This document shows, in pieces, positions 21,948 through 42,252 of a stretch of DNA of 64,000 nt (its first letter is position 1; every line of letters begins with the position of its first letter). The DNA is from Pseudomonadota bacterium. Lineage in GTDB: Bacteria; Pseudomonadota; Alphaproteobacteria; Caulobacterales; Caulobacteraceae. Under the pieces are notes generated by a model. The model saw only the letters and a program-made list of their open reading frames with translations, searched no databases and had not been told where the DNA came from. The stretch spans positions 18,109 through 82,108 of the forward strand of contig JAZKHQ010000022.1 of the NCBI GenBank assembly GCA_040385285.1, read 5' to 3'. A program made the translations under genes and the position numbers.

Positions 21948-21987
21948 CAGCAAAAAGCCGGCGGGGGTGATGCGCCCCCGCCGGCCT
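21948..21987 (-). terminator. Terminator of autotransporter 1; exact 40-nt copy at 38520-38559
   Basis: Stem GCCGGCGGGGG/CCCCCGCCGGC with a T5 tract on the minus strand. Confidence 0.88.
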
Positions 21988-22015
21988 CTTTGGTTTCAGT
22001 GGAAGTTCAGTGTGA

Positions 22016-25000
22016 TCAGAACTTCCTGGACAGCAGGAACCGGATGGTTCCGAGCGTCTGGCCGGTGGAGAAGCGTCCGCCCAGTTCGCCGGTGGCCTTC
22101 CAGCCGCTGGAGGTGGTCACGTTCAGCCCCAGGTCGAGGACGAACTCGCTGCGGTCCCAGCCGGTGGACTGGATCTGGTAGACCGGACCCGCCGCCCAGT
22201 CGGCGTACTGCAGGGACTGCAGGCCGCCGTCGGCGAACTCGTGCCGGTACTCGATGCGGAAGCTCGGCGTCCAGACGCTGTCGCGTTCCTCATGAGCCCA
22301 GGCGTAGCGGGCGCCGAGGACGCCTTGCAGGCTTTCGACGTCACGCTCGGCGTAGCTGAGCGCCCAGAGCGCCGAGCCGGTTTCCGTGTAGGCGTCCAGT
22401 TCGGCCTCGATCGATTCAACGCGGCCGTAGGCGTTGACGTGGCCGACCGCGACCGAGTGGTCGAAGCCCAGCCCGACGGAGCCGAACACCGCCGTGCCGT
22501 CGCGCTGGCCGGTCACCAGGCTGTTGTCGCCCGTGGCCCGCCGCTGCAGGTCGAACTCAAGCGAGCCGTAGCCCAGCATGGCGTCCAGATAGATGCCCGG
22601 CTGGGGCCGCCAGCTGCCGTAGGCCATGCCCACGAACTGACGGCTTTCGACCGACGAGTCCGCCGAGCCGATGTCGGCGCTTTCCTCACCGAAGCCGCCG
22701 GCGAGGCCGAAGTCCAGGGTCGGCGACAGGGCCATGTCAGCCCCGACGCTGAGCCCGCCCGAGTGGATCGAGAACTTGGACTGACCCGTTTCCGCGTCAC
22801 GCTGGCCGAAGGAGATCGCGCCGCCGGTCCAGAAGCGCAAGCCCCCCGAAGGACCGTCGCCCGACGGGGTCGGCGCCGCGTTCAGGCCGTCGACGCCCAT
22901 GCCCGTGTTCGAGCCGAAGCCCGCCTTGTCAGACGCGCCGCCGAAGGCCGTGGCGTCGGCCGACCAGAGCATGGCGTTCAGCTCGGCCCGGTCCGGGTCG
23001 GCCATCTGGCGGTCGAACATCCGGCCGCCGCCCAGCTGGGTGCGCAGGTCGGCTGCACGGCCCAGTTCGGCCACGCCCGAGTTCAGGTTGAGGCCCATGC
23101 TCATCGGCTGGTTTCCGGCGCCCGAGTGCAGTTGCTCGAGGCGGCGGTTGACGTTGTCGATCTGCACCGTGGCCAGGCGACGGGTGGCGTCGGCCTGGGC
23201 CGCGTCCAGGCCCCGCACGTCCGGGTCCGCCGACGGATCGGGACGGGCCAGGATGTTCAGGACCACCGAGACCGTGCCGGTGTTGCCGAAGGCGTCGGTC
23301 GCACGGACGGTGATCGGATAGCTGCCGACCGCATAGGACGTGCCCGACAGGCGACCCGTCGACGACAGGGTGATGCCCGCGGGCAGGGCGCCCGAGGTCA
23401 CCGCGTAGGTGTAGGCGCCCGAACCGCCCGTGGCGCTGAACGAGCGGTCATAGGCGACCCCCGCCATCACCCCCGGCAGCGCCGTCGGCGTCACCGTGAT
23501 GGTCGCCGCATTGACCACCAGGGTCAGGCTGACGTCACCCGAGAAGGGGCCCGAACCGGTGGCCTGGTCCGTAGCCCGGACGGTGAAGGTGAACGTCCCG
23601 GTCCCGGTCGGCGTGCCCGAGAGCACGCCCGTCGAGGACAGGGTCACGCCCGGAGGCAGGGCGCCGGCCGAGACGGTGTAGCTGTAGGTCCCGACGCCGC
23701 CCGTGGCCGAGAAAGTCTGGCTGTAGGCAAAGCCGCGTGTGGCCGCCGGCACCGTGGCCGGGGTGACCACAATGGCCGCCGCATTAACGGTCAGGCTGTA
23801 GGCCCGGCTGCCGGTATAGGGACCCGAGCCCGTCGAGCTGTCGGTCGCCGTGACGGTGAAGTTGAACACGCCCCCTGCGGTCGGGGTGCCGGAAAGCACC
23901 CCGCCCGAGGTCAGGCTCATCCCCGCCGGAAGTGCCCCGGCGGTGAGGGCGTAGGTGTAGGTCGCCGTGCCGCCCGTGGCCGTGATGGTCTGGCTGTAAC
24001 CTGCCACTGCCACGGTCGGGTTCGACAAGGAGGCCGGCGACAGGGTGATGGTCGGAGCCACGATTGCCAGGGTGTAGGCGCCCGTGATCGTGAACGGTCC
24101 CGTTCCGGTGGAGCTGTCGGTCGCCGTCACCGAGAAGCTGAAGTCCCCCCCTGCGGTCGGCGTGCCCGAGATCACGCCTGCGCTCGACAGGGTGACTCCC
24201 GCCGGAAGCGCGCCCGCCGTCAGGGCATAGGTGTAGGGTGCAGTGCCGCCCGAAGCGGACAGGGCCTGGCTGTAGGCTGAGGCCACCGAACCGCCTGGCA
24301 GGGTGCCGCCCGGCAGGGCTAGCACCGGATCCGGGATGGTGATGGTGATGGTAGCCGGCGCCGATTCCGACGGTGGGTTGGAGCCATCGGCGTAGCCAAC
24401 GGCCTTGAAGGTGAAGGTCACGACGCCGAAGTAGCCCGGCTCAGGCGTGTAGTTGACGGTGAAGCCGCTGACCGTCGCCGTGCCGTGGGCCGGCGGGCTG
24501 ACGATCTCGATCGATGCCGCGTTGCCGACAGACCCGGACAGGTTGATGCCCTGGCTTCCACCGGTTCCTGTGACCGTGGCGCTACCCGGGTTCGCCGTCG
24601 GCGGCGCGGGTGCGGCCACCGGGATGCTGTAGGCCGACGAGGCCGTCAGGCTGCTGTTGTCGGTGACGGTGACGGTGAAGTTGAAGGCGCCCGAGGCGGT
24701 CGGTGTGCCGGACAGCGCGCCGCCCGACGACAGGGTGATCCCCGGCGGCAGCGCGCCGGCGGTCACGGCATAGCCGTAGGGGGCCGTTCCGCCCGTGGCG
24801 GTGACGGACGCCGAATAACCGACCCCCACCTGGCCACCCGAAAGCGCTCCGCCCGGAAGCGACAGGGGCGAATAGGTGAAGGTGTTGGTGTTGGACGTCG
24901 CGGAGGTGTTGCCCGCCGCATCGGTGGCCGTGGCCCGCACGGTATGCGACCCCACCGACAGGGCCGAGGTGGTGAAGGCCCAGTTGCCCGACCCGTCCGC

Positions 25001-26698
25001 CGTGGTGGTGCCCGCAACCGAACCGTCCACAATCACGGCCACCGTCGAAGCCGCTTCCGCCGTACCCGTCACGGTCGACACGGCATTGTTGGTCAGGGAC
25101 CCGCTCGCCGGGGTGAGAGTCACCGGCGGCGGCGGCGGCGTGGTGTCCACAGTGAAGGTGTTGATGTTCGAGGAGGCCGAGGTTCCGCCGACGTTGGTCG
25201 TGGCCGCCGCGAAGGTGTGAGGGCCGTCGGCGAACGGGAACGGCAGGGTCCAGGACCAGTTGCCGGCCCCGTCAGACGTGGTGGCAAGGCCGCTGGAAAC
25301 GCTGTCGAAGTAAACGATGATGTCCGTATTGGCGGGTGCCGTACCGGTCACGGTTGGGGTGTTGTCACTGGTCAGCGATCCGTTCGCCGGGGTGACAACC
25401 ACCGGAACCGCCGGCACGGCGACGTAGGTGTAGTCGTTGCCCGTACCGCTTGCAGAACTGGTGCCCCCCGCCGTGGTGACCTGCACATCGACCGTACCGG
25501 CCACACCTGCAGGAATCATCACTGACATCGTGGTCGGACTGTCGACCCCGAAGGTGACCGCCGGCGTACCGCCGAAGGTCACCGCCGTCGCACCCGAGAG
25601 GTTCGTGCCACCCAGGCTCATGACGTGGCCGCCGGAAAGCCGACCCGAAGACGGGTTCAACGACGTCACCGTCGGGGCCGCGACATAGGTGAACCGATCC
25701 GCTGCGCTGGTGGCGCTGGTCCCGCCCGCCGTGGTGACGCGCACGTCCACCGTGCCGGTTCCGGCAGGAGCTGTGGCCGTGATCTGGGTCGCGCTGTTGA
25801 ACGTGAAGCCGGTCGCCGGAGTCGCGCCGAAGTCGACTGCAGTCGCGCCCGTGAAATCCGTGCCAGTGATCGTGACGACCGTGCCGCCCGAAGTCGGGCC
25901 ACTGGATGGTGATACGGCGGTGACCGCCGGAGCCGCTGGGTTCACGGTGACGGTGAAGCTGGCGGTGGAGGTGTTTCCGGCGACGTCGGTTGAGGAGTAG
26001 CTGTTGGTGGTGACGCCGATGGGGAAGGTGGCGCCTGACCCCAGGCCGGCGGTCTGGGTCACCGGACGGGCGCCGTCGACGGCGTCATTGGCGGTTACAG
26101 CGGGGAAGGTGATGGTGGCGCCCGATGCGCCCGAAGCCGCCGTGACCACAATGTTCGACGGCACGGTGATGACCGGGGGGGTGGTGTCAGCCGGTGCGCC
26201 GTTGACGTTGATTACCAAGCGTCGACCGGGAGAAACCGTCACGCCCTGCATGTCAATACGCACGGCATTCGACGTTGTAGAGACAGCGTTAACTCCCAAA
26301 TCGCTGGAGGAATCGACGCTTGCCGAAGTTATCGCTATGTTAAAGGTAAGAATAGGCCCGTTAAAACTGACTGGACTACTAAACGTAGCGTTGCCTATTC
26401 CAGTAACAATGATCTGATTCGAGGTTACGTCGATTGACATAAGTCCGCCTTGGGCGGACGTAAACTCAACACTACTGCCGACCGTTACGGGGCCTTGCGC
26501 GTAGAACAAGCTCCCAATGTTTGGGAAGTTTTGAGCATACGAAACCTGGGCACCGGTCAAGCTCTGGGCGGATGCCGCGCCCGGAAGCGCCAGGCCCGCC
26601 ATGACGAACACCGCCACGAACAGCATCGTCAAGGATGCAAGCGACCGGCTCGCAACACCACCTGCACGCGCCGCCGCGCGACATACCATCGAGATCAT
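22016..26698 (-). CDS. Autotransporter adhesin 1 (variable tip, HYR, 2x IPT/TIG, 2x bacterial Ig-like, multiple putative-Ig repeats, beta-barrel)
   Basis: Long signal peptide; DTTPPVITVP HYR; P.VT..SP.SG IPT/TIG; YSYAVTAGALP.G.TLS putative-Ig; barrel ending SRKF. Confidence 0.92.
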   Translation of the reverse strand: MISMVCRAAARAGGVASRSLASLTMLFVAVFVMAGLALPGAASAQSLTGAQVSYAQNFPNIGSLFYAQGPVTVGSSVEFTSAQGGLMSIDVTSNQIIVTGIGNATFSSPVSFNGPILTFNIAITSASVDSSSDLGVNAVSTTSNAVRIDMQGVTVSPGRRLVINVNGAPADTTPPVITVPSNIVVTAASGASGATITFPAVTANDAVDGARPVTQTAGLGSGATFPIGVTTNSYSSTDVAGNTSTASFTVTVNPAAPAVTAVSPSSGPTSGGTVVTITGTDFTGATAVDFGATPATGFTFNSATQITATAPAGTGTVDVRVTTAGGTSATSAADRFTYVAAPTVTSLNPSSGRLSGGHVMSLGGTNLSGATAVTFGGTPAVTFGVDSPTTMSVMIPAGVAGTVDVQVTTAGGTSSASGTGNDYTYVAVPAVPVVVTPANGSLTSDNTPTVTGTAPANTDIIVYFDSVSSGLATTSDGAGNWSWTLPFPFADGPHTFAAATTNVGGTSASSNINTFTVDTTPPPPPVTLTPASGSLTNNAVSTVTGTAEAASTVAVIVDGSVAGTTTADGSGNWAFTTSALSVGSHTVRATATDAAGNTSATSNTNTFTYSPLSLPGGALSGGQVGVGYSASVTATGGTAPYGYAVTAGALPPGITLSSGGALSGTPTASGAFNFTVTVTDNSSLTASSAYSIPVAAPAPPTANPGSATVTGTGGSQGINLSGSVGNAASIEIVSPPAHGTATVSGFTVNYTPEPGYFGVVTFTFKAVGYADGSNPPSESAPATITITIPDPVLALPGGTLPGGSVASAYSQALSASGGTAPYTYALTAGALPAGVTLSSAGVISGTPTAGGDFSFSVTATDSSTGTGPFTITGAYTLAIVAPTITLSPASLSNPTVAVAGYSQTITATGGTATYTYALTAGALPAGMSLTSGGVLSGTPTAGGVFNFTVTATDSSTGSGPYTGSRAYSLTVNAAAIVVTPATVPAATRGFAYSQTFSATGGVGTYSYTVSAGALPPGVTLSSTGVLSGTPTGTGTFTFTVRATDQATGSGPFSGDVSLTLVVNAATITVTPTALPGVMAGVAYDRSFSATGGSGAYTYAVTSGALPAGITLSSTGRLSGTSYAVGSYPITVRATDAFGNTGTVSVVLNILARPDPSADPDVRGLDAAQADATRRLATVQIDNVNRRLEQLHSGAGNQPMSMGLNLNSGVAELGRAADLRTQLGGGRMFDRQMADPDRAELNAMLWSADATAFGGASDKAGFGSNTGMGVDGLNAAPTPSGDGPSGGLRFWTGGAISFGQRDAETGQSKFSIHSGGLSVGADMALSPTLDFGLAGGFGEESADIGSADSSVESRQFVGMAYGSWRPQPGIYLDAMLGYGSLEFDLQRRATGDNSLVTGQRDGTAVFGSVGLGFDHSVAVGHVNAYGRVESIEAELDAYTETGSALWALSYAERDVESLQGVLGARYAWAHEERDSVWTPSFRIEYRHEFADGGLQSLQYADWAAGPVYQIQSTGWDRSEFVLDLGLNVTTSSGWKATGELGGRFSTGQTLGTIRFLLSRKF

Positions 26699-27013: not shown

Positions 27014-27043
27014 AACGTCCGCTTTGGGTCGATAGCGGACATT
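27014..27043 (+). repeat. Dispersed 30-bp palindrome (GTCCGCT-N10-AGCGGAC family), copy A
   Basis: AACGTCCGCTTTGGGTCGATAGCGGACATT; 29/30 identical to the reverse complement of 56837-56866. Confidence 0.9.
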
Positions 27044-27100: not shown

Positions 27101-27748
27101 ATGACCATCCCCGACCCTGCCGCCTTCATCGCCGCCAACACCCGGCTCCAGGCCGTGCCGCATGCGCCCGAGATTTCGCTGTGGCTGGCGGACGAGGTGA
27201 CCCCGATCTGGCGGCTGACGGAGGAGGAACTGGGCGAGTTGGGCCTGCCGCCGCCGTTCTGGGCCTTCGCCTGGGCGGGAGGCCAGGCGCTGGCGCGCTG
27301 GCTGCTGGACAATCCGCACGAAGTCGCCGGCAGGCGGGTGCTGGATTTTGCCGCAGGGTCCGGGCTGGTCGGCATCGCGGCGATGCAGGCGGGGGCGGCC
27401 AGCGTGCTCAGCGCCGACATCGATCCCTTCTGCGGCGCGGCGGTCCGGCTGAACGCCGCCGCCAACGGCGTCGAGCTCGGCTTCACCGACGCCGACCTGC
27501 TGGATGGCCCGCCGCCGGATGTGGACGTGATATGCGCCGGCGATGTCTGCTACGAGGGGCCCATGACCGACCGGGTGCTGGGCTGGCTGCACGCCGCCAA
27601 GGCCAGGGACGCCCGCGTCCTGATCGGCGACCCCGGGCGCACTTATTTCCCGAAGACGGGCCTGACCTTCCTCGCCGAATACCAGGTGCCGACCACGCGC
27701 GAGCTGGAGGATTTCGCGGTCAAGCGCACCTCGGTCTGGGCTCTCTGA
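27101..27748 (+). CDS. Class I SAM-dependent methyltransferase (Nnt1/METTL21-like protein methyltransferase family)
   Basis: PPPFWAFAWAGG, VLDFAAGSGLVG, AGDVCYE, GDPGRTY; start at MTIPDP. Confidence 0.9.
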   Translation: MTIPDPAAFIAANTRLQAVPHAPEISLWLADEVTPIWRLTEEELGELGLPPPFWAFAWAGGQALARWLLDNPHEVAGRRVLDFAAGSGLVGIAAMQAGAASVLSADIDPFCGAAVRLNAAANGVELGFTDADLLDGPPPDVDVICAGDVCYEGPMTDRVLGWLHAAKARDARVLIGDPGRTYFPKTGLTFLAEYQVPTTRELEDFAVKRTSVWAL

Positions 27749-27793: not shown

Positions 27794-30700
27794 TCAGAAG
27801 CGCGTCGACAGCTTGACCTGGACGCCATGGCTGATGGTGTCCGAGCTGGTCGTGCCGCGATAGCCGGCGGTCAGTTCCATGTTTTCGAAGACCCAGCGGC
27901 CTTCCAGGTCAAGCGCGAAGCGGTTCCGCGCCCAGCTGTCGAGCTCCAACCCGTAGCGGGGGCTGGCCAGCCAGTCGGCGTAGGAGACCGTCTGCGATCC
28001 CACCTCGTCGAACTGGTGCGCCCATTCGAAGCGCAGGCTCGGCGCGAACAGGCTGTCACGGCTCTGAATCCGCCAGTCCATCCGCATCCCCACGGTCGAG
28101 GACAGGGCGTCGAACTCAAGCGCGTCATAGGTCAGGGCGTAGATCCCCGCCCCGGTCTCTGTGAAGCCGTCCAGAGTCACCGACTGGGCGTCGATCCGGG
28201 CGTAGAGCGACCGGTTCATGCCCTCTGACCGGTGCTCCTGGGCCAGGCCGATCGATCCGAACGTCATGTCGCCCGACCGCTCGCCGAAGGCGAAGGCCGA
28301 CGCCGCCGTCGACCAGCGCTTCGAGTCGTAGTCCAGCGACCCGTAGCCGAACACCCCTTCGAGATGGATGTCGTTCGGCGCCTGCCAGGCGGCGTAGAGG
28401 GCGCCGACCGTGCTGGTCCCGTCCGAGGTGGTGTCGTTGGAGCCGATCCGCGTGCGGTCATCGCCATAGCCCAGGCCTGCCCCGACGATCAGGGCGTCGG
28501 TGAGCTTGACGTCCACCCCCGCACTGACCCCCGAGGTGGTGAACCGGGTGTCGCGCTGGCCATCGGCCTCACGCCGGCCCCAGTCGATGCCGCCGCCGGC
28601 CCAGACGCCCACACTGTGGCCGCCTTGAGCGTCTTCGCCTTGCGACCGCGAGGGTGCGGCGCCGAGCGCCGGAGCATCCATGGCTTCAACCGAAGCGGTC
28701 AGACCGCCCCGACCGCCGAACTGGGCGAAGGCGTCCGCTTCCTCGTCGCGGGCGCGCGTCTCCATCAGGCTCAGACCGTCCTCACTCGCCTGCTGGTCGC
28801 CCAGCCGGCGCCGCGCCGCGGCCCGCGGATCGATGTCGTTCGCTCCGCCCATGTTCAGGTTCAGCGACAGGTTGGAGGCGCTGTCGTTGTCTCCGTCCCG
28901 GATCTGCTCCAGCCGGCGGTGGAAGTTGCTGATCTGGGTGTCAGCGAAGCGCAGGGCGCTGTCGACCTGTGAGCTGACCAGCCCGCGCACGTCCGGATCC
29001 ATGGACGGATCGGGACGCGACGTCACCGTCACCTGCACCACGCCGCCTTCGGTGGCGAAGGCGTTGGTCAGGGTGAAGTTCACGTCCACCCGGCCCGTGA
29101 AGGTTCCGGCCGGCGTGAAGGTCAGGTCATAGGTCCGGTTTCCGGCCGTCCCGCCCTGGGTGAGGACCGCGGCCCCCGCCGTCGGGATGGACAGGTTGAC
29201 GATCGCCGCCCCCGTGAAGGGCCCGCCCACCGCGTTGGCTGTCAGGCTGACGGTTACCGGCCGACCCGCGGGTGTGGAGACGACCAGCGTCTGGGCCCCC
29301 GGCGCGCGGTTGACCGTGTAATCGATGCGGCCGACCGCCGAGACGCCGCCCGGGGTGGTGATCGTATACTCCAGATACGTCGGCCCGTTGTTGGCCGCGC
29401 CCGGGGTGAACACGATGTTCAGCCCCGACACCACGGCCGTGCCGAAGCCCGGAGCGCGGGTGATCTGCACGCTGTTGAACGGCCCGCCCGTCAGCCCCGA
29501 GGTCGTATCGATCGTCGAGACGGCGTTCGACGCGACGGTCGCGGTCCGGTTGGGCGCCATGCCCGGGACCTGGAAGGTGAAGGTCACCGGCGCCGAGTCG
29601 CCGCCGGGGCCTTCGGCCACCAGGGTGACCGTGTCGGTTCCCATGAAGCCGGCCGTGGGCGTGTAGCGCAGGCTCAGGGCCGGACCCGTGGCCTGCGGTC
29701 CCTCGCCCGGCATGGCGGCCGGGGCCGGGGCCGGTCCGGCGCCTTCGATCACCGCCGCCCCATGGATCGGAGCGATGGTGATGCGCCAGCCGGTCACCAC
29801 GCCGCCCACCTGGGTCTGCAGGTCGACGGTGGATGAGCCGCCCGTGGTCGGAGGCACCGGCGTCGGCGGGGTCGGCGTCACCACCGGCGGCGGCGGCGTC
29901 GCCACACTCAGGCTGACCGTGGCCGGGGCGGACGAACCGCCGGGGCCGTTGGCCGTGTAGGTGAAGCTGTCGGCGCCGAAGTAGCCGGCTGCGGGCGTGT
30001 AGGTGATCACATAGCCCGCAATGCTGGTCGTTCCGTGCGACGGCGCCGAAGCGACGCTGACGCCGGTCGAGACGCCCGCCACGCGGCTGGTCAGATCGAT
30101 GGCCGTGCCGGCGCTGGCGTAGGGAACGGAGACCGAGGTCCCGGTCGCCGTCGGCGCGGGCGGCAGGCCCACCGTCACCGTCACCGTGGCCGGAACCGAC
30201 GTGCCGCTGCCGTTGGTGGCGGTGTAGGTGAAGCTGTCGGCCCCGAAGTAGCCGGCCGCCGGGGTGTAGGTGATCGACAGGCCCGAGACCGTCGCCGTCC
30301 CGTGCGCGGGCGCGGTTCCGATGGCGAGGCTGTTCGCCGCCCCGCCCGTCAGGTTCAGCGTCACCGGATTGTCGGCGCTGCCATAGGCGACGCTCACCGA
30401 CACCGGGTTCGCCGTCGGCGGATCCAGGGCGATGAACAGGCTGTAGGCGCGCGATCCGGCGTAGGGGCCGTTGCCCGTGGCGCTGTCGGTCGCGGTCACT
30501 GTGAAGTTGAAGGTCCCGTTGTCGCTCGGCGTGCCCGAAAGCACCCCGGTCGAGGGCGACAGCGTCAGGCCGTTCGGCAGGACGCCCGCGGTCACCGCAT
30601 AGCTGTACGGCGCCACCCCGCCCGAGGCCGCGATGACCTGGGAATAGGCGATGGCCTTGGTCCCGTCCGGCAGCGTCGTCGGGCCGACCGTGACGGCCGG

Positions 30701-33700
30701 TGCCGCAATGGCGATGCTGTAGGTCTGGGTCGTGGAATACGGCCCCGAACCGGTCGAACTGTCGGTCGCCCGGGCGTTGAAGAAGAAGGTCCCGCCGCCG
30801 GTCGGCGTGCCCGAAAGCGCGCCGGTCGGGGACAAGGTCACCCCCGGAGGCAGATCCCCGGCCGTGAAGGCATAGCTGTAGGGCGCCGTGCCGCCGGTCG
30901 CGGCCGGCAGTTGGCCGCTGTAGGGCACGGTGACCGCGCCCGCAGGCAGGCTTGCCGTCGGCAGGACGATGGTCGCGGCGGCGACAGGAAGGCTATAGGC
31001 GCGGCTGCCGCTGTACGGCGCGCCGGTCCCTGTCGAGCTGTCGGTCGCCGTGATGGTGAAGTTGAACGTCCCGCCCGCCGTCGGCGTGCCCGTAAGCTGG
31101 CCGTTCGAAGCCAGGGTCATGCCCGCGGGCAGGGCGCCCGCCGTGATGGCGAAGCTGTAGGGCCCCGTGCCGCCGATCGCGCTGAAGGTGTTGCTGAAGG
31201 ACGCACCCACCGTCGCCGTCGTGCTCATCGGGCTGACGCTGATGGTCGGGGCGGCGACGTTCAGACTATAGGCACGCGCCGTGGTGAACGGCGCCGACGG
31301 CCCGTTCGACGAGTCGGTCGCCGTGACGGTGAAGTTGAACGTCCCGCCCGCGGTCGGCGTGCCCGAAAGCACGCCCCCCGCCGACAGGGTCAGCCCCGCC
31401 GGAAGCGCGCCGGCGGTCCGGGCATAGCTGTAAGGCGCAGCCCCGCCCGAAGCGGTCAGCGTCTGGCTGTAGGCCGTCCCCACCGTCGCCGCCGGAACCG
31501 TGGCCGGATTCAGCGTCAGGGTGGGCATGCTCACCGTGATGGTCGCCGTGGCCGGGCTCGACGTGCCACCGGCGTTGGTCGCCGTATAGGTGAAGCTGTC
31601 CGGGCCGGCATAGCCGGCCGCCGGGGTGTAGGTGATCGATGCGCCCGAAGCCGTGGCCACGCCGTTCGTCGCCTGCACCGCGATGGCGACGCTATCCGCC
31701 GAGCCGCCCGACAGGTTGAGGGTGATCGGGTTGGCGCTGCTGCCATAGGCGACCGTCGCCGACACCGCGCCCGTCACCGGCGCGAACGGCACGACGGTGA
31801 ATGTGTTGGTTCCGGAGTTCGGCGAGGAATTGCCGGCCGCATCCGCTGCGCTCGCCCGCACGGTGTGCGCCGCCAGGGTCAGCGGCGTCGGCTGGGTCAG
31901 GCTCCAGTTCCCCGAGCCATCCGCCGTGGTCGTCCCGATCGCGGAGCCGTCAACAGCCACCGTGACGGTCGAGGCAGGCTCGGCCGTGCCCGTATAGACC
32001 GGGTTCAGGTTGGTGGTGCTGGAGCCATTCGCGGGGGCCGTCACGACCGGAGCCGCCGGCGCCACGCTATCGACCGTAAAGGTGTTGGTGTTCGATGACG
32101 GCGAGGGGCCGCCGCTGTTGGTCGCTACGGAACGAACGGTGTGCGGACCCTCGGACAGGGGCGCGTAGGACGAGAAGAACCAGTTCCCACCGCCATTGGA
32201 GGCCGTCGTACCCACTGATGCGCCATCGATGATCACATCGATGATCACGCCGGGGTCCGACGTGCCCGAAATGGTCGGATGATTGTCGCTGGTGACCAGC
32301 CCATTGGCGGGTGTGGTCGTCACCGGCGCCGAGGGCGGCGCGACATCGTCGTTGACGATCGTGCCGAGGCCCTGATTGTCGGCGAACGACGCGTTGCTGG
32401 CCGCAGACAGATTGAAGGCGAAGGTTTCGTCCGGCTCCAGCGTCGTGTCGCCGTTCACCAGGACCGTGGCGGTCTTGATCGTTTCGCCCGGCGCAAAAGT
32501 GAAGGTGCCGGACGGTGCGGAATAGTCGGAGCCGTCGGTCGCCGTCAGACCGACCGTGCCGTAATCGACGGTGACGGCAAGGGCGCTGGGCGCGCTCAGC
32601 GAGGCCGTGAAGACAAAGGCGGTCGTGCCGGCGTTTCCTTCATTCAGCGTGACGTCATTGACCGACAGGAACGGCATGGCGTCGTCGTTCACGATCGTGC
32701 CGACACCCTGTCCATCAGAGATGCCTGCGTCCACAGCACTGCTGAGGTTGACGAAGAAGGCCTCGTTGTTCTCGTACAGCAGGTCGCCCGACACCGCGAC
32801 CGTCACACTGTGCGCGGTATCGGACGGGTTGAACGTCAGGGTTCCGCTGGTCGCGAAGTAATCATTGCCCGCGACCGTGGCTGTGCCGTCCGCCGTGGCG
32901 AAGTTGACGGTCGAGGCCAGCTGGGTGTCCCCCGTCTTCGCAACGGTGAAGGTGAAGGCCGTCGTGCCCGCGCTTCCTTCTGACATGGTCACGTCATTGA
33001 TCGTGAATGCCGGCGCGGTGTCATCATTGGTGATGGTCCCGACACCTTCGGCATCGGCCACCACGGCACCGGTGACGTTGGCGACGGTAGCGGTGAAGGT
33101 CTCGCTCAACTCATAGAGGGCGTCGTCGACGGCGTTGATCGAGACGAGGTGGCTGCTCTGTCCCTCCGGGATCGTGAGACCGGTCAGCGGCGGGGCTATG
33201 AAGTCAGACACGCTCGCCGTGCCGGGGGCGACATTGACGTCAAAGGTGACGCCACCCGGCCCCGCAGGGCCGTCCAGGCTGACGGTGAAGTTCGCCACGT
33301 TGCCTTCGGTGACAGTCACGTCGTTGATCGAGAGGTTCGGCTCCACATAGACCGTGAAGGTGTTGCCGCCGGAATAGTTGGACTGATTACCCGCGGCGTC
33401 CGTGGCCCGGGCCTGCACTACGTGCGAGCCGACAGCCAGGATGGTGGGCTCGGTGATCGACCAGGCACCGGTTCCGTCTGCGGTGGTCGTGCCGACGAAA
33501 TTGGAGGACACCGTGACCTCGATCGCCGCGTTCGCCTCTGCCGTGCCGGTATAGGTCGGCGAACGGTTGGTCGTCGCCGAACCATCGGCGGGCGCGTCTA
33601 TCACCGGCGCGTTCGGCGCCGTCGAATCGAAGGTGAAGGTGACGATGTTGGAGTCCGGCGACGTGCCGCCGTCGGTGGTGACACTGGCGCGCAGCGTGTG

Positions 33701-36700
33701 CTCGCCCTCCGGCACGTTCAGCACGCCCGGCACGGCCCAGTTACCGCTTCCGTCAGCGTTGACACTCGTCAGAGGTGAACCGTTCAGGAACAGGTTGACG
33801 AAGGTATTGGGGTCCGCCGTGCCCGACACTGTCGGGTAGGAGTTGATGAAGGATCCGTTGGTCGGCGAGTTGATCACCGGCGCACTGGGGCGCGGCACAT
33901 AGGTGAACTGAACCCCCGGAACAACGTCCGTGATCCCGCCCGTGTTCGAGACACGAACGTCCACCGTTCCGGTCCCGGCAGGAGACTGCACGAACAGCTG
34001 GTTTGTGCTCACGTAGGTGATGCTTGCAGCGGAAACGCCGCCGAATGTCACCGCCACGTCGGGCGTGAAGTTCGAACCGACGATCAGCACATTGGTGCCG
34101 CCTGCTTCCGGTCCGGTAGGCGGTCCGAGGAGCGTGATCTCGGGCCGCTCGACATAGGTGAAGTCGTCCGCCGACGTGTTGGCGCTGGTTCCCGCAATGT
34201 TGGTCACGGAAACATCGATCGTGCCTGAGCCTGCCGGGCTGACGGCGGAGAGGGCAGTCGCGCTGATAAACGACACGGACGTCCCGGGCGTGCCGCCGAA
34301 GCTGACGGTCGAAGCCGGCGTGAAGTTCGAGCCGGTGATGTTGACGCTCGTTCCGCCGGCGACAGGCCCCGCCTGCGGCGAAATCGTGCTGATGATCGGC
34401 GTGGCGACAACGGTCAGGGCGGGAACCGACACCGAACCGGTCACGGACGCGCCGTTGGTGAGCAGCACATAGCCGACGTCAGCGAGGTTATAGGTTCCGC
34501 TGCTCGCCGAGGTCAGCTCAACCGTGGTCGAGCAGGTCGTGCCGCTGTTGGCGGGAAGCTGCAACCAAAGCGCCTGGCCCTGGTCCCCGCTGAAGCTGTT
34601 GGACCCGCCGCAGTTGATGGCGCCGACGCCGGAAACCGTGACGCCCGCAGGCAGGGCGTAGTTCTGGAAGTTGGGGTTGCCGGCAAAGCCGAATACGCCT
34701 CCCAGCAGCGCGTCATTGGGATTGGTCATCGACAGCGTCAGGGTCGTCGTTTGACCCGCTAGAATAGTCGTGTCCGACAGGGTGACGGACACGACCGGCG
34801 GCGTCGGAACGACTGACAGGGTGGCATTCGCGGACGTCCCTGAGCCACCCGCATTGGTGAACACCGCGCGATAGAGGAGCAGATGACGGCTCATCTGGCC
34901 GGTGACGGTCAGGGTGTTGGTGGTTGCGCCGGCATAGGCGCCGGGCGTGTTGGATATGTCGACGAAGGCGCTGCCACTGCCATCGGTGGACACCTGCCAC
35001 TGGACGGAAGGCGAACCCGAGGCCGAGGCGGTGAAGGTGGTGGTCGAGCCGGCGTTGACGCTGGTATTGGACGGGTCGCCCGTGACCGACGGTGCCGCGA
35101 CATAGGTGTACTGATCTGCTGCACTGGTCGCGCTGGTCCCCGTGACGTTCGTCACCTGAACATCGACCGTGCCGGAACCCGCCGGCGCCGTGGCCGTGAT
35201 CTGGGTCGTGCTGTTGACTACGTGGGCGGCCGCGACGCCGCCGAAGGTCACGCCGCTGACCGAGCTGAAGTTCGTGCCGGTGATGACGACCGACCCCCCG
35301 CCCGCGAGCGGTCCGCTGGTCGGGCTGACGGCGGTCACCGTCGGCGCCGCCGGATTGACGGTCAGGACGTTGGACGTGGCGCCGGGGCCGGTGGGGTTGC
35401 CCTGGTCGATCGCCTGGATCGTGCCCACCGAGAACTGGTAGGTATTCGGCTGGAAGCCGCGCATCACCATCGTATAGGTGCACGAACCACCGGCGGGGAC
35501 CGTGTAGCCCCCGGTCGAAAGGCCGGCGGGGCCATAGCTCAAGCCTCCCGCTCCCCCGCACGTCGTGTCGATAGTGGAATTGAGGCCCAGATAGTCCGGA
35601 CCCGGTATGGGCGCCATCGCCACCCTGGTCAGGGCGACCGTGGGATTGGGGTTCGTCAGGGTGATGGTCAGGGTCGAGTTCTGCAGCGTGACCACTGACG
35701 ACGGGCTGAACACCAGCGATGCGGTCGGCGGCGCGACATAGGTGATGTCATCGGCCGCGGTGTTAGCGGTCGTCCCGCCCGGGGTCGTCACCCGGATGTC
35801 GACCACGCCCATGGCATGGGCCGGCGCGACGGCGGTGATCTGGCTGTTGCTGTTGACCACATAGCTGGTCGCGTTCACGCCGTCGAAGGTGACGGCGGTG
35901 GCTCCGGTCAGGTCGGAACCGGTGATGACGATGCTGTTGCCGCCGGTGACGCGCGCATGGGCGGTGACGGCGCTGACCGAAGGCGCCGGCGGCGTCACCG
36001 TATAGGTGTTCGAGGTCGCACCGGCGCCGGTAAGGCCGCCGGGGTTCGCAAAGGTCGAGGCGATGCTGACGGTGTAGACGCCCGCAGCGAAACCGCGCAC
36101 CGGCGCGGTGATCACGCAGGTCCCGTTCGCCGGCACATTGCCGCTGTTCGAATTGATGCCCGAGGACCCGGAGGTGAAGTTGCCGCCGCAGCCGTTGGTC
36201 GGCGGCCCGTTGAGCCCGAAGTTCGCGGCGAAGGGGATCCCCGTCATCCCGAACTGGGTCAGGGCCACGCTGTTGGGGTTCGTGACCGTCATCGTCATGG
36301 TCGCGCTGTCGGTCGTCAGACCCGAAGACGGGCTGATGACGATCGAAAGCGTCGGCGGGGCCAGATAGGTGAAGTCGTCCGCCGAGGTGTTGGCGCTTGT
36401 TCCACCGCCGGTCGTCACGCGGACGTCGGTCAGACCGGCGGCATGCGCCGGGGTCGTAACGTGGATCTGGGTCGCGCTGTCTACGACGATGCCGGTCGCC
36501 GCCGTGCCGCCGATGGTGACGCCGGTCACGCCGGTCAGATCGGTCCCGTCGATGTACAGCGTCTGGCCGCCCGCGATTGATCCGTAGACGGACGACAGGC
36601 TGGTCACGGCCGGAACCGGCGGGGCGATGGCGGTGATGCTGCCCGGTGAACCCAGGTCGCCGGTTGGGAAGAATCCAACCCCGCCCACGACGAGGCCCGA

Positions 36701-37240
36701 TCCGACGTTGGAGAAGCTTTTCACACCTGCGGTCGAGGCGACCAGACGGACGGCCAGGGTGCAGGTCGTGCCTTGCGGAACATTGCTGCCCAAGGCCGAG
36801 AACCCACCACTGCCGGCCGCCACGCCGTTCAGGAACAGATTGCAGTCGTTGGTGACGGGCGTGGACGAGGAAACCGTGACGCCGGACGGCAGGGCATAGG
36901 CCGAGTTGGGAGAGCCGAGGGCGCCGATATAGGTATTGGTCGATGCGCCGGGATCGTTCTGGGTGACCTGGATGGTCAGTGTGAACGGTGTTCCCGTGGC
37001 GATTGTGCTGTCGGACAGGGACGCCGACCCGGTCGGCACGGCCTGGGCCGCAGCGCCCGAAGCAAGACCCGCCGCCATGGCGAACCCCAGGATCGACGTG
37101 ATCAGCGCGGCGGGGCGACGCCCGCGCGGCCTCGCGATGTCGCGGCTAGGCTGCGCTTCAGTGGCGCGGGCCTGGCCCGGCTGCGGCTTGAAGACGGTCT
37201 CACGGGCCCAGCGGCACGCACGCGTAATGGCATCGAACAT
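27794..37240 (-). CDS. Giant autotransporter adhesin 2, 3148 aa (DUF11-like Cys-containing domains alternating with IPT/TIG; bacterial Ig; 3x Calx-beta; putative-Ig; cadherin-like tandem repeats; beta-barrel)
   Basis: Intact ORF; LSINDVT..EGN Calx-beta; YTPAAGY.G.DSFTYTA cadherin-like repeats; RPDPS.DPDVRGL linker; barrel ending STRF. Confidence 0.92.
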   Translation of the reverse strand: MFDAITRACRWARETVFKPQPGQARATEAQPSRDIARPRGRRPAALITSILGFAMAAGLASGAAAQAVPTGSASLSDSTIATGTPFTLTIQVTQNDPGASTNTYIGALGSPNSAYALPSGVTVSSSTPVTNDCNLFLNGVAAGSGGFSALGSNVPQGTTCTLAVRLVASTAGVKSFSNVGSGLVVGGVGFFPTGDLGSPGSITAIAPPVPAVTSLSSVYGSIAGGQTLYIDGTDLTGVTGVTIGGTAATGIVVDSATQIHVTTPAHAAGLTDVRVTTGGGTSANTSADDFTYLAPPTLSIVISPSSGLTTDSATMTMTVTNPNSVALTQFGMTGIPFAANFGLNGPPTNGCGGNFTSGSSGINSNSGNVPANGTCVITAPVRGFAAGVYTVSIASTFANPGGLTGAGATSNTYTVTPPAPSVSAVTAHARVTGGNSIVITGSDLTGATAVTFDGVNATSYVVNSNSQITAVAPAHAMGVVDIRVTTPGGTTANTAADDITYVAPPTASLVFSPSSVVTLQNSTLTITLTNPNPTVALTRVAMAPIPGPDYLGLNSTIDTTCGGAGGLSYGPAGLSTGGYTVPAGGSCTYTMVMRGFQPNTYQFSVGTIQAIDQGNPTGPGATSNVLTVNPAAPTVTAVSPTSGPLAGGGSVVITGTNFSSVSGVTFGGVAAAHVVNSTTQITATAPAGSGTVDVQVTNVTGTSATSAADQYTYVAAPSVTGDPSNTSVNAGSTTTFTASASGSPSVQWQVSTDGSGSAFVDISNTPGAYAGATTNTLTVTGQMSRHLLLYRAVFTNAGGSGTSANATLSVVPTPPVVSVTLSDTTILAGQTTTLTLSMTNPNDALLGGVFGFAGNPNFQNYALPAGVTVSGVGAINCGGSNSFSGDQGQALWLQLPANSGTTCSTTVELTSASSGTYNLADVGYVLLTNGASVTGSVSVPALTVVATPIISTISPQAGPVAGGTSVNITGSNFTPASTVSFGGTPGTSVSFISATALSAVSPAGSGTIDVSVTNIAGTSANTSADDFTYVERPEITLLGPPTGPEAGGTNVLIVGSNFTPDVAVTFGGVSAASITYVSTNQLFVQSPAGTGTVDVRVSNTGGITDVVPGVQFTYVPRPSAPVINSPTNGSFINSYPTVSGTADPNTFVNLFLNGSPLTSVNADGSGNWAVPGVLNVPEGEHTLRASVTTDGGTSPDSNIVTFTFDSTAPNAPVIDAPADGSATTNRSPTYTGTAEANAAIEVTVSSNFVGTTTADGTGAWSITEPTILAVGSHVVQARATDAAGNQSNYSGGNTFTVYVEPNLSINDVTVTEGNVANFTVSLDGPAGPGGVTFDVNVAPGTASVSDFIAPPLTGLTIPEGQSSHLVSINAVDDALYELSETFTATVANVTGAVVADAEGVGTITNDDTAPAFTINDVTMSEGSAGTTAFTFTVAKTGDTQLASTVNFATADGTATVAGNDYFATSGTLTFNPSDTAHSVTVAVSGDLLYENNEAFFVNLSSAVDAGISDGQGVGTIVNDDAMPFLSVNDVTLNEGNAGTTAFVFTASLSAPSALAVTVDYGTVGLTATDGSDYSAPSGTFTFAPGETIKTATVLVNGDTTLEPDETFAFNLSAASNASFADNQGLGTIVNDDVAPPSAPVTTTPANGLVTSDNHPTISGTSDPGVIIDVIIDGASVGTTASNGGGNWFFSSYAPLSEGPHTVRSVATNSGGPSPSSNTNTFTVDSVAPAAPVVTAPANGSSTTNLNPVYTGTAEPASTVTVAVDGSAIGTTTADGSGNWSLTQPTPLTLAAHTVRASAADAAGNSSPNSGTNTFTVVPFAPVTGAVSATVAYGSSANPITLNLSGGSADSVAIAVQATNGVATASGASITYTPAAGYAGPDSFTYTATNAGGTSSPATATITVSMPTLTLNPATVPAATVGTAYSQTLTASGGAAPYSYARTAGALPAGLTLSAGGVLSGTPTAGGTFNFTVTATDSSNGPSAPFTTARAYSLNVAAPTISVSPMSTTATVGASFSNTFSAIGGTGPYSFAITAGALPAGMTLASNGQLTGTPTAGGTFNFTITATDSSTGTGAPYSGSRAYSLPVAAATIVLPTASLPAGAVTVPYSGQLPAATGGTAPYSYAFTAGDLPPGVTLSPTGALSGTPTGGGTFFFNARATDSSTGSGPYSTTQTYSIAIAAPAVTVGPTTLPDGTKAIAYSQVIAASGGVAPYSYAVTAGVLPNGLTLSPSTGVLSGTPSDNGTFNFTVTATDSATGNGPYAGSRAYSLFIALDPPTANPVSVSVAYGSADNPVTLNLTGGAANSLAIGTAPAHGTATVSGLSITYTPAAGYFGADSFTYTATNGSGTSVPATVTVTVGLPPAPTATGTSVSVPYASAGTAIDLTSRVAGVSTGVSVASAPSHGTTSIAGYVITYTPAAGYFGADSFTYTANGPGGSSAPATVSLSVATPPPPVVTPTPPTPVPPTTGGSSTVDLQTQVGGVVTGWRITIAPIHGAAVIEGAGPAPAPAAMPGEGPQATGPALSLRYTPTAGFMGTDTVTLVAEGPGGDSAPVTFTFQVPGMAPNRTATVASNAVSTIDTTSGLTGGPFNSVQITRAPGFGTAVVSGLNIVFTPGAANNGPTYLEYTITTPGGVSAVGRIDYTVNRAPGAQTLVVSTPAGRPVTVSLTANAVGGPFTGAAIVNLSIPTAGAAVLTQGGTAGNRTYDLTFTPAGTFTGRVDVNFTLTNAFATEGGVVQVTVTSRPDPSMDPDVRGLVSSQVDSALRFADTQISNFHRRLEQIRDGDNDSASNLSLNLNMGGANDIDPRAAARRRLGDQQASEDGLSLMETRARDEEADAFAQFGGRGGLTASVEAMDAPALGAAPSRSQGEDAQGGHSVGVWAGGGIDWGRREADGQRDTRFTTSGVSAGVDVKLTDALIVGAGLGYGDDRTRIGSNDTTSDGTSTVGALYAAWQAPNDIHLEGVFGYGSLDYDSKRWSTAASAFAFGERSGDMTFGSIGLAQEHRSEGMNRSLYARIDAQSVTLDGFTETGAGIYALTYDALEFDALSSTVGMRMDWRIQSRDSLFAPSLRFEWAHQFDEVGSQTVSYADWLASPRYGLELDSWARNRFALDLEGRWVFENMELTAGYRGTTSSDTISHGVQVKLSTRF

Positions 37241-38519: not shown

Positions 38520-38559
38520 CAGCAAAAAGCCGGCGGGGGTGATGCGCCCCCGCCGGCCT
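38520..38559 (-). terminator. Terminator of autotransporter 3; identical to 21948-21987
   Basis: CAGCAAAAAGCCGGCGGGGGTGATGCGCCCCCGCCGGCCT exact duplicate. Confidence 0.88.
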
Positions 38560-38587
38560 GTTTGTCGTCAGTCGTGGCTCAGACGGA

Positions 38588-41500
38588 TCAGAACTTTTTC
38601 GACAGCATGAACCGAAGCGTTCCGAGGGTCTGGCCGTTGGCGAAGCGTCCGCCGACCTCGCCGGTGGCGGTCCAGCCGCCGGTGGTGGTCATGTTCAGCC
38701 CCAGGTCGAGGGCGAACTCGCTGCGGTCCCAGCCGGTCGACTGGATCTGGTAGGTCGGTCCGCTCAGCCAGTCGGCGTACTGCAGGCTCTGGATCCCGCC
38801 GTCGGCGAACTCGTGCCGGTACTCGACGCGGAAGCTGGGGGTCCACTGGCTGTCCCGTTCCTCGTGGGTCCAGGCGTAGCGGGCGCCCAGCACCCCTTGC
38901 AGGCTTTCGACGTCGCGGGCGTCATAGCTGAGCGCCCACAGCGGCGAACCGCTTTCGGTGTAGGCGTCCAGCTCGGCGTTCATCGACTCGATGCGGGTGT
39001 AGGCGTTGACGTGCCCGATCGCGACCGGCCGGTCGTAGCCGAGACCCACCGAGCCGAACACCGCCGTGCCGTCGCGCGAGCCCGTCACCAGGCTGTTGTC
39101 GGCGGTCACCCGGCGCTGCAGGTCGAACTCAAGCGTGCCATAGCCCAGCATGGCGTCCAGATAGACGCCGCCCCGGGGCCGCCAGCTGCCGTAGACCACG
39201 CCTACGAAGCTGGTCGAGTCCACGCTGGAGTCGGCCACGCCCACATCGGCGCTCTCCTCGCCGAAGCCGCCGCCGATGCCGATGTCCAGGGTCGGCGACA
39301 CGGCCATGTCGGCCCCCAGGCTGATCCCGCCCGAGCGCACCGCGAACTTCGACTGGCCCGTGTCCCCGTCACGCTCGCCGAAGGCGATCGCGCCGCCGGT
39401 CCAGAAGCGCAGGCCGCCCGAAGGACCGCCGTCGCCCGATTGAACCGGCGCGGCGTTCAGGCCGCCGACGCCCATGCCCGTGTTCGAGCCGAAGCCCGCC
39501 TTCCCGGACGCGCCTGCGAGGGCAAGCCCCTCGGCGTTCGCGTCACGCCACAGCATGGCGTTCAGCTCGGCCCGGTCCGGGTCGGCCATCGACTGCCGGC
39601 CGAACATCCGCCCGCCGGCCAGCTGGGTGCGCAGGTCGGCCTCGCGGCCCAGCTCGGTCACGCCCGAGTTCAGGCTCAGGCCCATGCTCATGGTCTGGGC
39701 TCCGCCGCCCGAGTGCAGCTGCTCCAGCCGGCGGTTGAAGTTGCCGATCTGGGTCTCGGTCAGGCGGCGGGTGGCCTCCGCCTGGGCCGCGTCCAGCCCC
39801 CGCACGTCCGGGTCCGCCGACGGATCGGGACGGGCCATGATCGTGATGCGCAGCACAACCGTGCCGGTGTTGCCGAAGGCGTCGGTCGCCGTGACCGTGA
39901 AGGGATAGCTCCCCACCGCATACGACGTGCCCGAGATCCGGCCCGCCGTGGTCAGGGTGATCCCCGCCGGCAGCGCCCCCGAAGTGACCGCATAGGTCAC
40001 CGCGCCGGAACCGCCCGTCGACGACAGCTGCTGATTATACGCAACCCCCGCCATCACCCCAGGCAACGCCGTCGGCGTCACCGTCAGCGTCGCCGCATTG
40101 ACCACCAGGGTCACGGAGACGTCGGTATAGTAGGGGCCGGTTCCGGCCGCGAGCGGCCCGTCGGAGCCCTTGCCGATAGCGCCGCCGCCGCCCGTTCCCG
40201 TCGAACTGTCGGTCACCCGGATCACGAGCGGGAAGCTGCCCGTGACCGTCGGCGTGCCCGCGAGCACGCCCGCCGAGGTCAGGGTGATCCCCGCCGGGAG
40301 CGGACCCGACTGAAGCGAGAAGGTGTAGGGCGCGGTGCCGCCGGATCCGGTCAGGGTCTGGCTGTAGGCCGAGCCGCGGGTGGCGGCCGGCAACGTGGTG
40401 GGGGTGAACGTCACCGTGGGCGCATTCACGGTCAGGCTGAAGGCGCGGCTGGCGGTCGCCCCGCTGGCCCCGCCGTCGGTCGCCGTGACCGTGAAGTTGA
40501 AGTTTCCGCCCTGGGTCGGGGTGCCCGAAAGCACCCCCGCCGACGACAGGGTCAGGCCCGCCGGCAGCACGCCGCCCGTCACCGCGAAGGTGCAGGGGCC
40601 GACGCAGTCCGTGGCGGTCAGCGCGGCGCTGTAGCTCGCGGCCACCGTGGCGTTGGACAAAGTCGTCGGGGTTATGCCGGTGACGCCCAGGTAGGTGTAG
40701 TCGTTGCCCGTCCCCGCCGCGGCGCTGGTTCCCCCGGCCGTCGTCACCGTGACGTCGAACGGCCCGGTGGCGTGCGCCGGGGTCGTCGCCGTGATCGAGG
40801 TGTCGCTGTTGACGGTGAAGACCGCCGCGGCGCCGCCGAAGCTGACCGCCGTCGCGCCGGTGAAGCCCGTGCCCGTGATGGTCACCACGGTTCCGCCTGC
40901 GCGCGCGCCGCTGGAGGGCGACAGCCCTGTGACGACCGGAGCCGCGAAATCGTCGTTGGTGATGGTCCCGGCGCCCTGGGCGTCGCCCACGGTCGCGCCC
41001 GTCACATTGGTGACGTTGACGAAGAAGCTCTCATTCGGCTCGACCCCGAGATCGCCGAGAACCGCAACATTGAATGTATAGCTCGTGCCGCCCTGCGGGA
41101 TCGTCTGCCCCGTAAGCGACGAGGCGGTGAAGTCATTGCCCGCCGCGGTCGCCGTGCCGTCGGCGGTGGCGATATCGAAGGTGACGCCTCCGGGTCCGGC
41201 GGCAGCGTCGAGGCTGACGGTGAAGACCGCGTTCACCGTCCCGGAGTTGCCCTCCGTGACAGTGGCGTCGTTGATGTTCAGCACGACCGGCGCGGCGTTC
41301 ACCGTGACGGTGAAGCTGTTGCTGGCGCTGTTGCCCGACAGGTCGACCGAGCTGAAGGTGTTGGTGGTCACGCCGACCGGGAAGCTCGCGCCCGACCCCA
41401 GACCGGCGGTCTGGGTCACGGGGCGCGCGCCGTCCACCGCGTCATTGGCGGTCGGAGCGGCGTAGGTGACCACGGCGGAGGATTGACCCGAGGCGGCCGT

Positions 41501-42055: not shown

Positions 42056-42252
42056 GTCGGATTCCCCCATCCAGAGAAGAGAAGTTAACGCCAATTAATC
42101 TGGATTGGCAAACCGCGTTCGACGAACCCCCGCCCACGCCCAAAACTGCTTGCATTGCATAAATTTAAGGAGTGGCGCGGCCTCGCACCCGCTACAGACG
42201 GCGCGGGTGCGCCGGGGGGCGTAAACCGCCGCGATCTTTCCAGGTGAGTCTC

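Follow-up and report, generated by a model that had tools for sequence, protein, structure and literature searches.

Recombination has been described in the autotransporter adhesin BadA (PMC8859334), and autotransporter genes of Campylobacter show lineage-associated distribution and decay (PMC7168839). Exosortase substrates with PEP-CTERM or PEPxxWA-CTERM signals, which include the floc-forming PepA-type proteins, are cell-surface proteins linked with aggregation (PMC9850573, PMC9012009). The gene studied here, autotransporter 1 (AT1), has features of both groups. It lies on a 64,000-nucleotide (nt) stretch of contig JAZKHQ010000022.1 from a draft Brevundimonas genome (G000; 85 contigs, 2.76 Mb, 68.4% guanine plus cytosine, GC). 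We refer to the whole stretch as the window, and coordinates are those of the window unless a contig is named. We moderately favor the interpretation that the first mature domain of AT1, here called the tip, is a divergent allele of lower GC content that was installed between the conserved flanks of a mosaic adhesin.

AT1 is a 1560-amino-acid open reading frame (ORF) on the minus strand (22016-26698). It begins with the predicted signal peptide and the tip; the Pfam matches that follow are, in order, HYR, TIG (twice), Big_13 (twice), Big_9, He_PIG (five times), and the PF03797 beta-barrel. The C-terminal match to PF03797 (residues 1289-1538, E 7.2e-42) identifies the barrel as type Va, and the match to PF02494 (residues 171-252, E 7.5e-18, 65.1 bits versus a Pfam cut-off of 21.7) assigns the HYR domain to that family. 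The predicted leader, read from the sequence by eye, is a hydrophobic stretch of 44 amino acids that ends in A-S-A-Q, and it is conserved in relatives. The features that matter most here are the following, with GC3 denoting GC content at third codon positions.

22016-26698, minus strand: AT1, a classical (type Va) autotransporter, from its ORF, translation, and Pfam matches
26567-26698, minus strand: predicted signal peptide, 44 amino acids (residues 1-44), which flanks the variable tip on its 5' side and is conserved; GC3 0.75
26195-26566, minus strand: tip (first mature domain), 124 amino acids (residues 45-168), all-beta
26213-26554, minus strand: low-GC3 patch at its maximum-likelihood extent (codons 49-162)
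26175-26181, minus strand: homopolymer of seven C (G on the plus strand) where tip and HYR meet, coding for the two prolines of DTTPP
25940-26194, minus strand: AT1 HYR domain, which starts at the ADTTPP linker, the conserved 3' flank; GC3 0.87

The composition of the tip sets it apart from the rest of the gene. GC content is 0.43 to 0.51 in 150-nt windows over 26250-26549, versus 0.64 to 0.74 elsewhere in AT1, and the GC3 minimum (30- to 40-codon windows) is 0.40 to 0.42 in the tip, versus 0.8 to 0.9 elsewhere. An earlier reading of this DNA from its letters (the sequence-only reading) had described a low-GC first mature domain and proposed a sliding-window GC3 analysis as a check; both the description and the check hold. 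A two-change-point likelihood fit placed the patch at codons 49-162, with GC3 of 0.526 inside and 0.871 outside (log-likelihood ratio 35.7), and 200 permutations gave at most 11.8. In position the patch matches the first mature domain: it starts just past the predicted leader cleavage site and ends at the domain's final strand (R-L-V-I-N-V-N). The amino acid content of the tip with host codon usage predicts a GC content of 0.63, versus the 0.51 observed. Codons in the tip that are rare in the reference set are ATA (three times), GTA (three times), TTT, CAA, CCA, TCT, and CGA. The ATA and GTA codons named by the sequence-only reading are thus present, but the TTA codon that it also named does not occur in frame in the patch. 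Two more autotransporters lie in the same orientation as AT1 (AT2, 27794-37240; AT3, 38588-42094), and the patch is the sole stretch in these three clustered genes with GC3 below 0.68; AT2 has no dip. Genome-wide, 300-nt windows with a GC content of 0.50 or less occur in 14 places (0.13% of windows), the tip patch among them. A composition break as sharp as this one fits a foreign origin of the tip.

That tips are replaced as units is apparent from relatives of AT1. Five related N-termini were recovered: one on an ENA metagenome scaffold, two on Logan contigs, and two in a second genome, G247 (contigs C9 and C17).

L006, Logan contig: AT1-like signal peptide; tip with 44% protein identity to that of AT1, GC3 0.75; HYR after a frameshift in a C run
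L008, G247 contig C9: AT1-like signal peptide; tip 36% identical, GC3 0.79; HYR in frame
L143, G247 contig C17: AT1-like signal peptide; tip of a third subtype, GC3 0.72; then DTTPP and a Big_13-type domain, without HYR
L007, Logan contig: AT1-like signal peptide; unrelated tip; HYR
L005, ENA scaffold of 2.2 kb from ERZ28573549: AT1-like signal peptide; tip with 81% protein identity, GC3 0.47; then unrelated low-GC sequence

DNA identity to AT1 in the signal peptide is 74 to 86% in L006, L007, L008, and L143 (70% in L005), and in the HYR domain it is 71 to 82% in L006, L007, and L008. The tips of L006, L007, L008, and L143 are 51 to 57% identical to that of AT1 in DNA, which is the noise level (shuffled control, 51%). 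For AT1 and L006 the succession is 84% in the signal peptide, 57% in the tip, and 82% in the HYR domain. The clearest pair is L007 and L008, which are 93% identical upstream, 83% in the signal peptide, 55% in the tip (shuffled, 51%), and 88% in the HYR domain. Their tips are non-homologous, their flanks are conserved, and the breakpoints are sharp. Given the 93% upstream identity and the non-homologous tips, we conclude that tip replacement is real. The claim that tips are exchanged by recombination thus holds as far as swapping between conserved flanks is concerned, with the sharp breakpoint at the HYR start that had been proposed for an alignment of orthologues. The accompanying idea that the HYR segment is the homology anchor is plausible but unproven, and HYR is not the sole 3' junction, as L143 has a tip of the AT1 tip family followed by DTTPP and a Big_13-like domain; the 5' anchor is the signal peptide.

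The unrelated tip of L007 (L007:217-742) is broken by a frameshift, possibly an error of the Logan contig. The run at the tip/HYR junction has seven C in AT1 and six C in the frameshifted L006 (L006:550-560), a length difference that may reflect either phase variation or a mistake in assembly. Runs of G or C of at least seven are rare in G000 (80 in total, two of them in AT1).

A similar arrangement is found within the window, where AT3 combines a related HYR domain with a different tip.

41546-41908, minus strand: AT3 tip, four Cys, GC3 0.84 (host-like), fold family unrelated to that of the AT1 tip
41290-41545, minus strand: AT3 HYR domain, paralogous to that of AT1; PF02494, E 4e-18

The HYR domains of AT1 and AT3 share 76% identity at the amino acid level and 75% at the nucleotide level, in line with the strong similarity that had been noted between them. 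The AT3 tip, described earlier as an unrelated four-Cys domain, indeed shows no relationship to the family of the AT1 tip (hhalign probability, 0.9%).

Among Brevundimonas, the combination is uncommon. The tip was absent from 36 genomes examined, the arrangement of signal peptide, tip, and HYR occurs in 2 of 276 species genomes (G000 and G247), and the autotransporter barrel family is present in 18 of 100, mostly in single copy. The adhesin is therefore not simply "otherwise host-like," as had been supposed. G000 itself has five copies (AT1 to AT3, AT4 on contig C40, and AT5 on contig C39), and AT1 is one of at least five paralogous adhesins of this immunoglobulin (Ig)-repeat type. The flanks of the two G247 loci are 86 to 91% identical to those of the AT4 and AT5 loci of G000, and the autotransporters at these loci in the two genomes start with wholly different leaders and tips. 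Replacement can, judging from these alignments, extend beyond the tip and into the leader. Because the flanks of the AT1 cluster are non-adjacent in relatives, no empty site is demonstrable.

No Pfam or NCBIfam model matched residues 45-168 of AT1. Among 1.8 billion representative proteins, the tip had 60 matches at an E value of 1e-3 or lower (best, 7e-13), covering its residues 1-123. Nearly all are proteins of about 170 to 200 amino acids that consist of a short signal peptide, the tip domain, and a PEP-CTERM or PEPxxWA-CTERM sorting signal; one is a Sandaracinobacter protein named PEPxxWA-CTERM by NCBI. The AT1 domain stops exactly where the PEP-CTERM linker of the homologues begins. In a family alignment of 47 sequences, G5, P15, V29, E34, N69-G70, and G108 are nearly invariant, and domain identity between the tip and the PEP-CTERM proteins is 26 to 43%. 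By this whole-domain similarity, the tip belongs to a beta-sandwich family that has no name and is otherwise carried by small PEP-CTERM proteins; in NCBIfam, family members match the FxDxF, NF038129, and PepA models weakly and in part. It is a previously undescribed domain family, common to exosortase substrates and autotransporter tips.

The structure prediction that had been suggested as a check was made for the AT1 tip. The AlphaFold2 model (17-row alignment) is all-beta with about ten strands, with a predicted local distance difference test score of 92.3 and a predicted template modeling (TM) score of 0.86. A sequence-profile search of the PDB with the tip gave nothing below E 0.38, and a Foldseek search of the model against the PDB gave nothing at E 0.001 or lower (best E 0.049, best TM score 0.41). 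The weak Foldseek resemblances are to beta-sandwich accessory domains of glycosidases. Neither the tip nor AT1 as a whole has a PEP-CTERM match, so AT1 is not classed as a PEP-CTERM substrate. Exosortase (PF09721) was not found in G000, which is 95.4% complete; the PEP-CTERM motif PF07589 was likewise not found there, but its control was negative everywhere, and this result carries little weight. A BLASTN search (word size 7) found no second copy of the tip DNA in G000. A diversity-generating retroelement target was considered and rejected, there being no template copy of the tip elsewhere in G000.

The passenger of a type Va autotransporter has its N-terminus at the greatest distance from the cell, and the 124-amino-acid domain is thus the distal tip. 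By this topology, it is likely a distal binding module that determines specificity. Since the PEP-CTERM relatives are tied to floc formation, extracellular polysaccharide is a candidate ligand.

A maximum-likelihood tree was made of the tips of five autotransporters together with 44 family members of the PEP-CTERM kind. The five tips form one clade in it (support 94/91; 95% of bootstrap trees), and the autotransporter family thus probably captured the domain once. On this topology, the AT1 tip would be a divergent allele of the autotransporter-tip clade rather than a fresh capture from an exosortase substrate. Its closest relative, the L005 tip, is 75% identical in nucleotides and 81% in amino acids, with nonsynonymous divergence (dN) of 0.14, synonymous divergence (dS) of 1.25, and a ratio of the two (omega) of 0.11; dS in the signal peptide is 0.94. 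These values indicate that the tip is under purifying selection, and hence in use, and that the AT1 and L005 alleles are old relative to each other. The recent import proposed by the sequence-only reading is not demonstrated, with the nearest tip relative at a dS of about 1.25 and the autotransporter tips in one clade instead of separate captures.

In the interpretation that we favor, the tip clade would derive from the beta-sandwich family usually carried by small exosortase-sorted (PEP-CTERM) surface proteins, and the AT1 allele would have arisen in, or spent a long time in, a gene pool whose GC content is much lower. The simplest reading is that its lineage spent much of its history in such a pool; the homologous tips of relatives, too, have GC3 below that of their own genes (0.72 to 0.79 versus 0.87 to 0.89). 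The allele would occupy, in frame, the slot between the signal peptide and DTTPP/HYR where relatives hold other tips, and recombination in these two flanks is the most likely route of replacement. A candidate vehicle is suggested by L005, whose ORF of signal peptide plus tip directly follows a resolvase. The resolvase region is 90.7% identical in nucleotides and 95.6% in protein (dS 0.37) to G000 C14:22225-23050, which lies inside a region of about 20 kb with a GC content of 0.55 to 0.63. Because the sole close relative of the tip adjoins the resolvase of this resolvase-bearing island of about 57 to 60% GC, the island may have been the vehicle.

Several points weigh against this interpretation. 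The AT1 and L005 tips both hold a GC3 near 0.5 despite a dS of about 1.25, and if their divergence was neutral in a host of 68% GC, a two-state amelioration model needs an ancestral GC3 of 0.09 to 0.32. Either the gene pool lies off the chromosome or selection maintains the low GC3. No donor of the tip was found, the best match outside autotransporters being 43% identical, and neither near-identical flanks nor a donor copy, as expected of recent homologous exchange, was found (best flank identity, 82 to 87%). The adhesive role of AT1 is read from its architecture. The linkage of L005 to a resolvase is a lead rather than a finding, as it comes from one 2.2-kb metagenome scaffold that is possibly misassembled. 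Two PEP-CTERM homologues were also considered as donors and rejected, since their genes are 58 to 59% GC on contigs of 58 to 62% GC.

The persistence of low GC3 in both alleles over such divergence is what could be expected if there had been no import at all, i.e., if the tip family had always resided in these autotransporters and selection held its GC3 low. Such selection could act through slow translation, or a weakly structured mRNA, where a domain has to remain unfolded until it is exported; through a regulatory site inside the gene; or through a silencing protein that binds there. The single clade of autotransporter tips agrees with this explanation, as does the fact that all five family tips lie under the GC3 of their genes (0.47 to 0.79 versus 0.87 to 0.89). 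Nevertheless, we consider it unlikely. GC3 is widely spread within the clade (0.47 to 0.56 versus 0.72 to 0.79), unrelated tips in the equivalent position are host-like (that of AT3, and AT2 with its lack of a dip), and the patch stops exactly at the domain boundaries. Third-base GC class at identical amino acids agrees between the alleles in 68% of cases versus 49% expected, a modest excess that is explained by shared ancestry.

The modeled ancestral GC3 could instead be taken at face value, as the mark of one old capture from a donor of very low GC (GC3 0.1 to 0.3) before AT1 and L005 split, followed by slow amelioration in Brevundimonas and no later exchange. Such an ancestor is feasible for a donor of 30 to 38% GC, and the signal peptide and tip of AT1 and L005 are similarly diverged (70% and 75% nucleotide identity). 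This account is nonetheless rather unlikely in our view, as sister tips at GC3 0.72 to 0.79 would require very unequal amelioration at equal age, and L005 lies in a mobile context of lower GC.

A different possibility arises from a small inverted repeat in the tip, which the sequence-only reading had likened to a dispersed palindrome family.

26443-26459, unstranded: mini-palindrome GTCCGCCTTGGGCGGAC, 17 nt with 7-nt arms and a 3-nt spacer, in the tip; codes for S-A-Q-G-G
27017-27040, unstranded: true palindrome of the dispersed family, 24 nt, 319 nt upstream of the AT1 start codon, outside the tip

The repeat is present as described, but its functional membership in the family did not hold up. 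Sites of the family are 24 nt long, with GTCCGCT and AGCGGAC on either side of a conserved 10-nt spacer, and number about 20 in G000, whereas the repeat in the tip is a single site with a spacer of 3 nt rather than 10 and with C rather than T at position 7. Could the tip nevertheless be a site-specific cassette moved by this palindrome system, with the mini-palindrome as its relic? The repeat does match the GTCCGC, TTGGG, and CGGAC of the family, the true member lies close upstream of AT1, and three more lie in the C14 island near its resolvase. It occurs only once in both the window and G000, a match to it with at most one mismatch arises in 12% of shuffles, it lies in the middle of the patch and of the homology with L005, away from the junctions, and its arms are not conserved in L005. 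We rejected it as a recombination relic on its spacer, its mid-patch position, and its non-conserved arms; it is probably a chance occurrence, and such a cassette mechanism is very improbable. Finally, it is hardly credible that the tip is an assembly chimera or contaminant fragment, for although the draft is in 85 contigs and the repeat at the end of C39 is 100% identical to a stretch of AT1, which marks the family as hard to assemble, the frame is open across both junctions, L005 independently shows the junction of signal peptide and tip, and L008 and L143 share the architecture in frame (L006 has it with a frameshift at the junction).

The installation of a divergent lower-GC allele between conserved flanks thus remains the interpretation that we prefer, and a bolder version of it can be outlined. 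Units of signal peptide plus tip may be cargo of the resolvase-bearing island of about 57 to 60% GC that is also found on C14, forming a reservoir of orphan cassettes that would replace autotransporter tips via recombination in the signal peptide and DTTPP. We regard this as a speculation of low probability. If true, a free-living alphaproteobacterium would have for its adhesins what silent pilin cassettes or Rhs orphan tips are in other systems. On C14, the island of about 60% GC (G000 C14:22280-28146) contains the resolvase and three 24-nt palindromes at 25782, 26529, and 28123, two of which bracket a small recombinase-like ORF (25860-26498). The 33-amino-acid tail of the L005 ORF is loosely membrane-anchor-like; it was set aside as a sorting signal, as no sorting-signal model matched.

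Other features of the autotransporter family in G000 are as follows. AT4 is located at G000 C40:14470-21288 (minus strand) and AT5 at G000 C39:2738-5470 (plus strand), and the tip of AT5 is Cys-rich. The end of contig C39 (5204-5470) has 100% protein identity to the pre-barrel part of AT1 (window 22964-23230), and the assembly break there probably falls in a repeat common to the paralogues. The last codons and a GC-rich hairpin terminator past the stop are about 86% conserved among AT1, AT3, and AT4.

21948-22024: terminator region of AT1
38520-38596: terminator region of AT3
G000 C40:14399-14475: terminator region of AT4

Between AT1 and AT2 is a plus-strand ORF (27102-27748) that by eye resembles an S-adenosylmethionine-dependent methyltransferase; the scanned frames had no Pfam match. 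Across 185,579 species genomes, the closest HYR relatives outside the AT1 lineage are almost all from Bacteroidota (about 40 to 55% identity), and the HYR domain itself may be an older import into Brevundimonas that is by now at host GC. A scan of metagenomes for the HYR domain found only distant HYR domains (at most 59% identity over the whole domain) and no new orthologues. With AT1 residues 1-260 as a protein query, the matches were mainly multi-HYR proteins of other phyla, with no orthologue carrying the AT1 tip.

Mosaic adhesins are, as wider biology, already well known, and AT1 is an unexceptional, though clear, example of the exchange of modules. It is nonetheless of some interest. It is a quantified example of an adhesin from an environmental bacterium that would change its binding specificity by exchange of a whole distal domain. 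It also links two export routes, as the same uncharacterized beta-sandwich is displayed either through exosortase/PEP-CTERM sorting or as an autotransporter tip. Lastly, the tip family is tractable for structural and ligand work, since its fold is predicted with high confidence although neither Pfam nor NCBIfam has a model of the family and no relative has a solved structure.

Compared with described mosaic adhesins (the Ig stalks of the intimin/invasin type and the head and passenger mosaics of autotransporters), AT1 shares the long Ig-like stalk, the variable distal domain, the conserved flanks, and whole-module differences among paralogues and orthologues. It differs from them in that its barrel is of type Va (PF03797), and hence its tip is N-terminal; in that its passenger is made of Ig-like domains rather than a beta-helix, with a tip family common to exosortase substrates; and in that its host is an environmental alphaproteobacterium. 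With PEP-CTERM substrates, AT1 has in common the homologous globular domain. Unlike them, it lacks a PEP-CTERM signal, its genome has no detected exosortase, and the domain is displayed by an autotransporter. The conserved trunk, variable end, and sharp breakpoint are reminiscent of polymorphic toxin, Rhs, and CdiA systems, and L005, with a signal peptide and tip but no trunk next to a recombinase, may be the equivalent of an Rhs/CdiA orphan cassette, a status that depends on one short contig. In contrast to polymorphic toxins, the variable part of AT1 is N-terminal and a binding-type beta-sandwich rather than a toxin, and it has no immunity gene.

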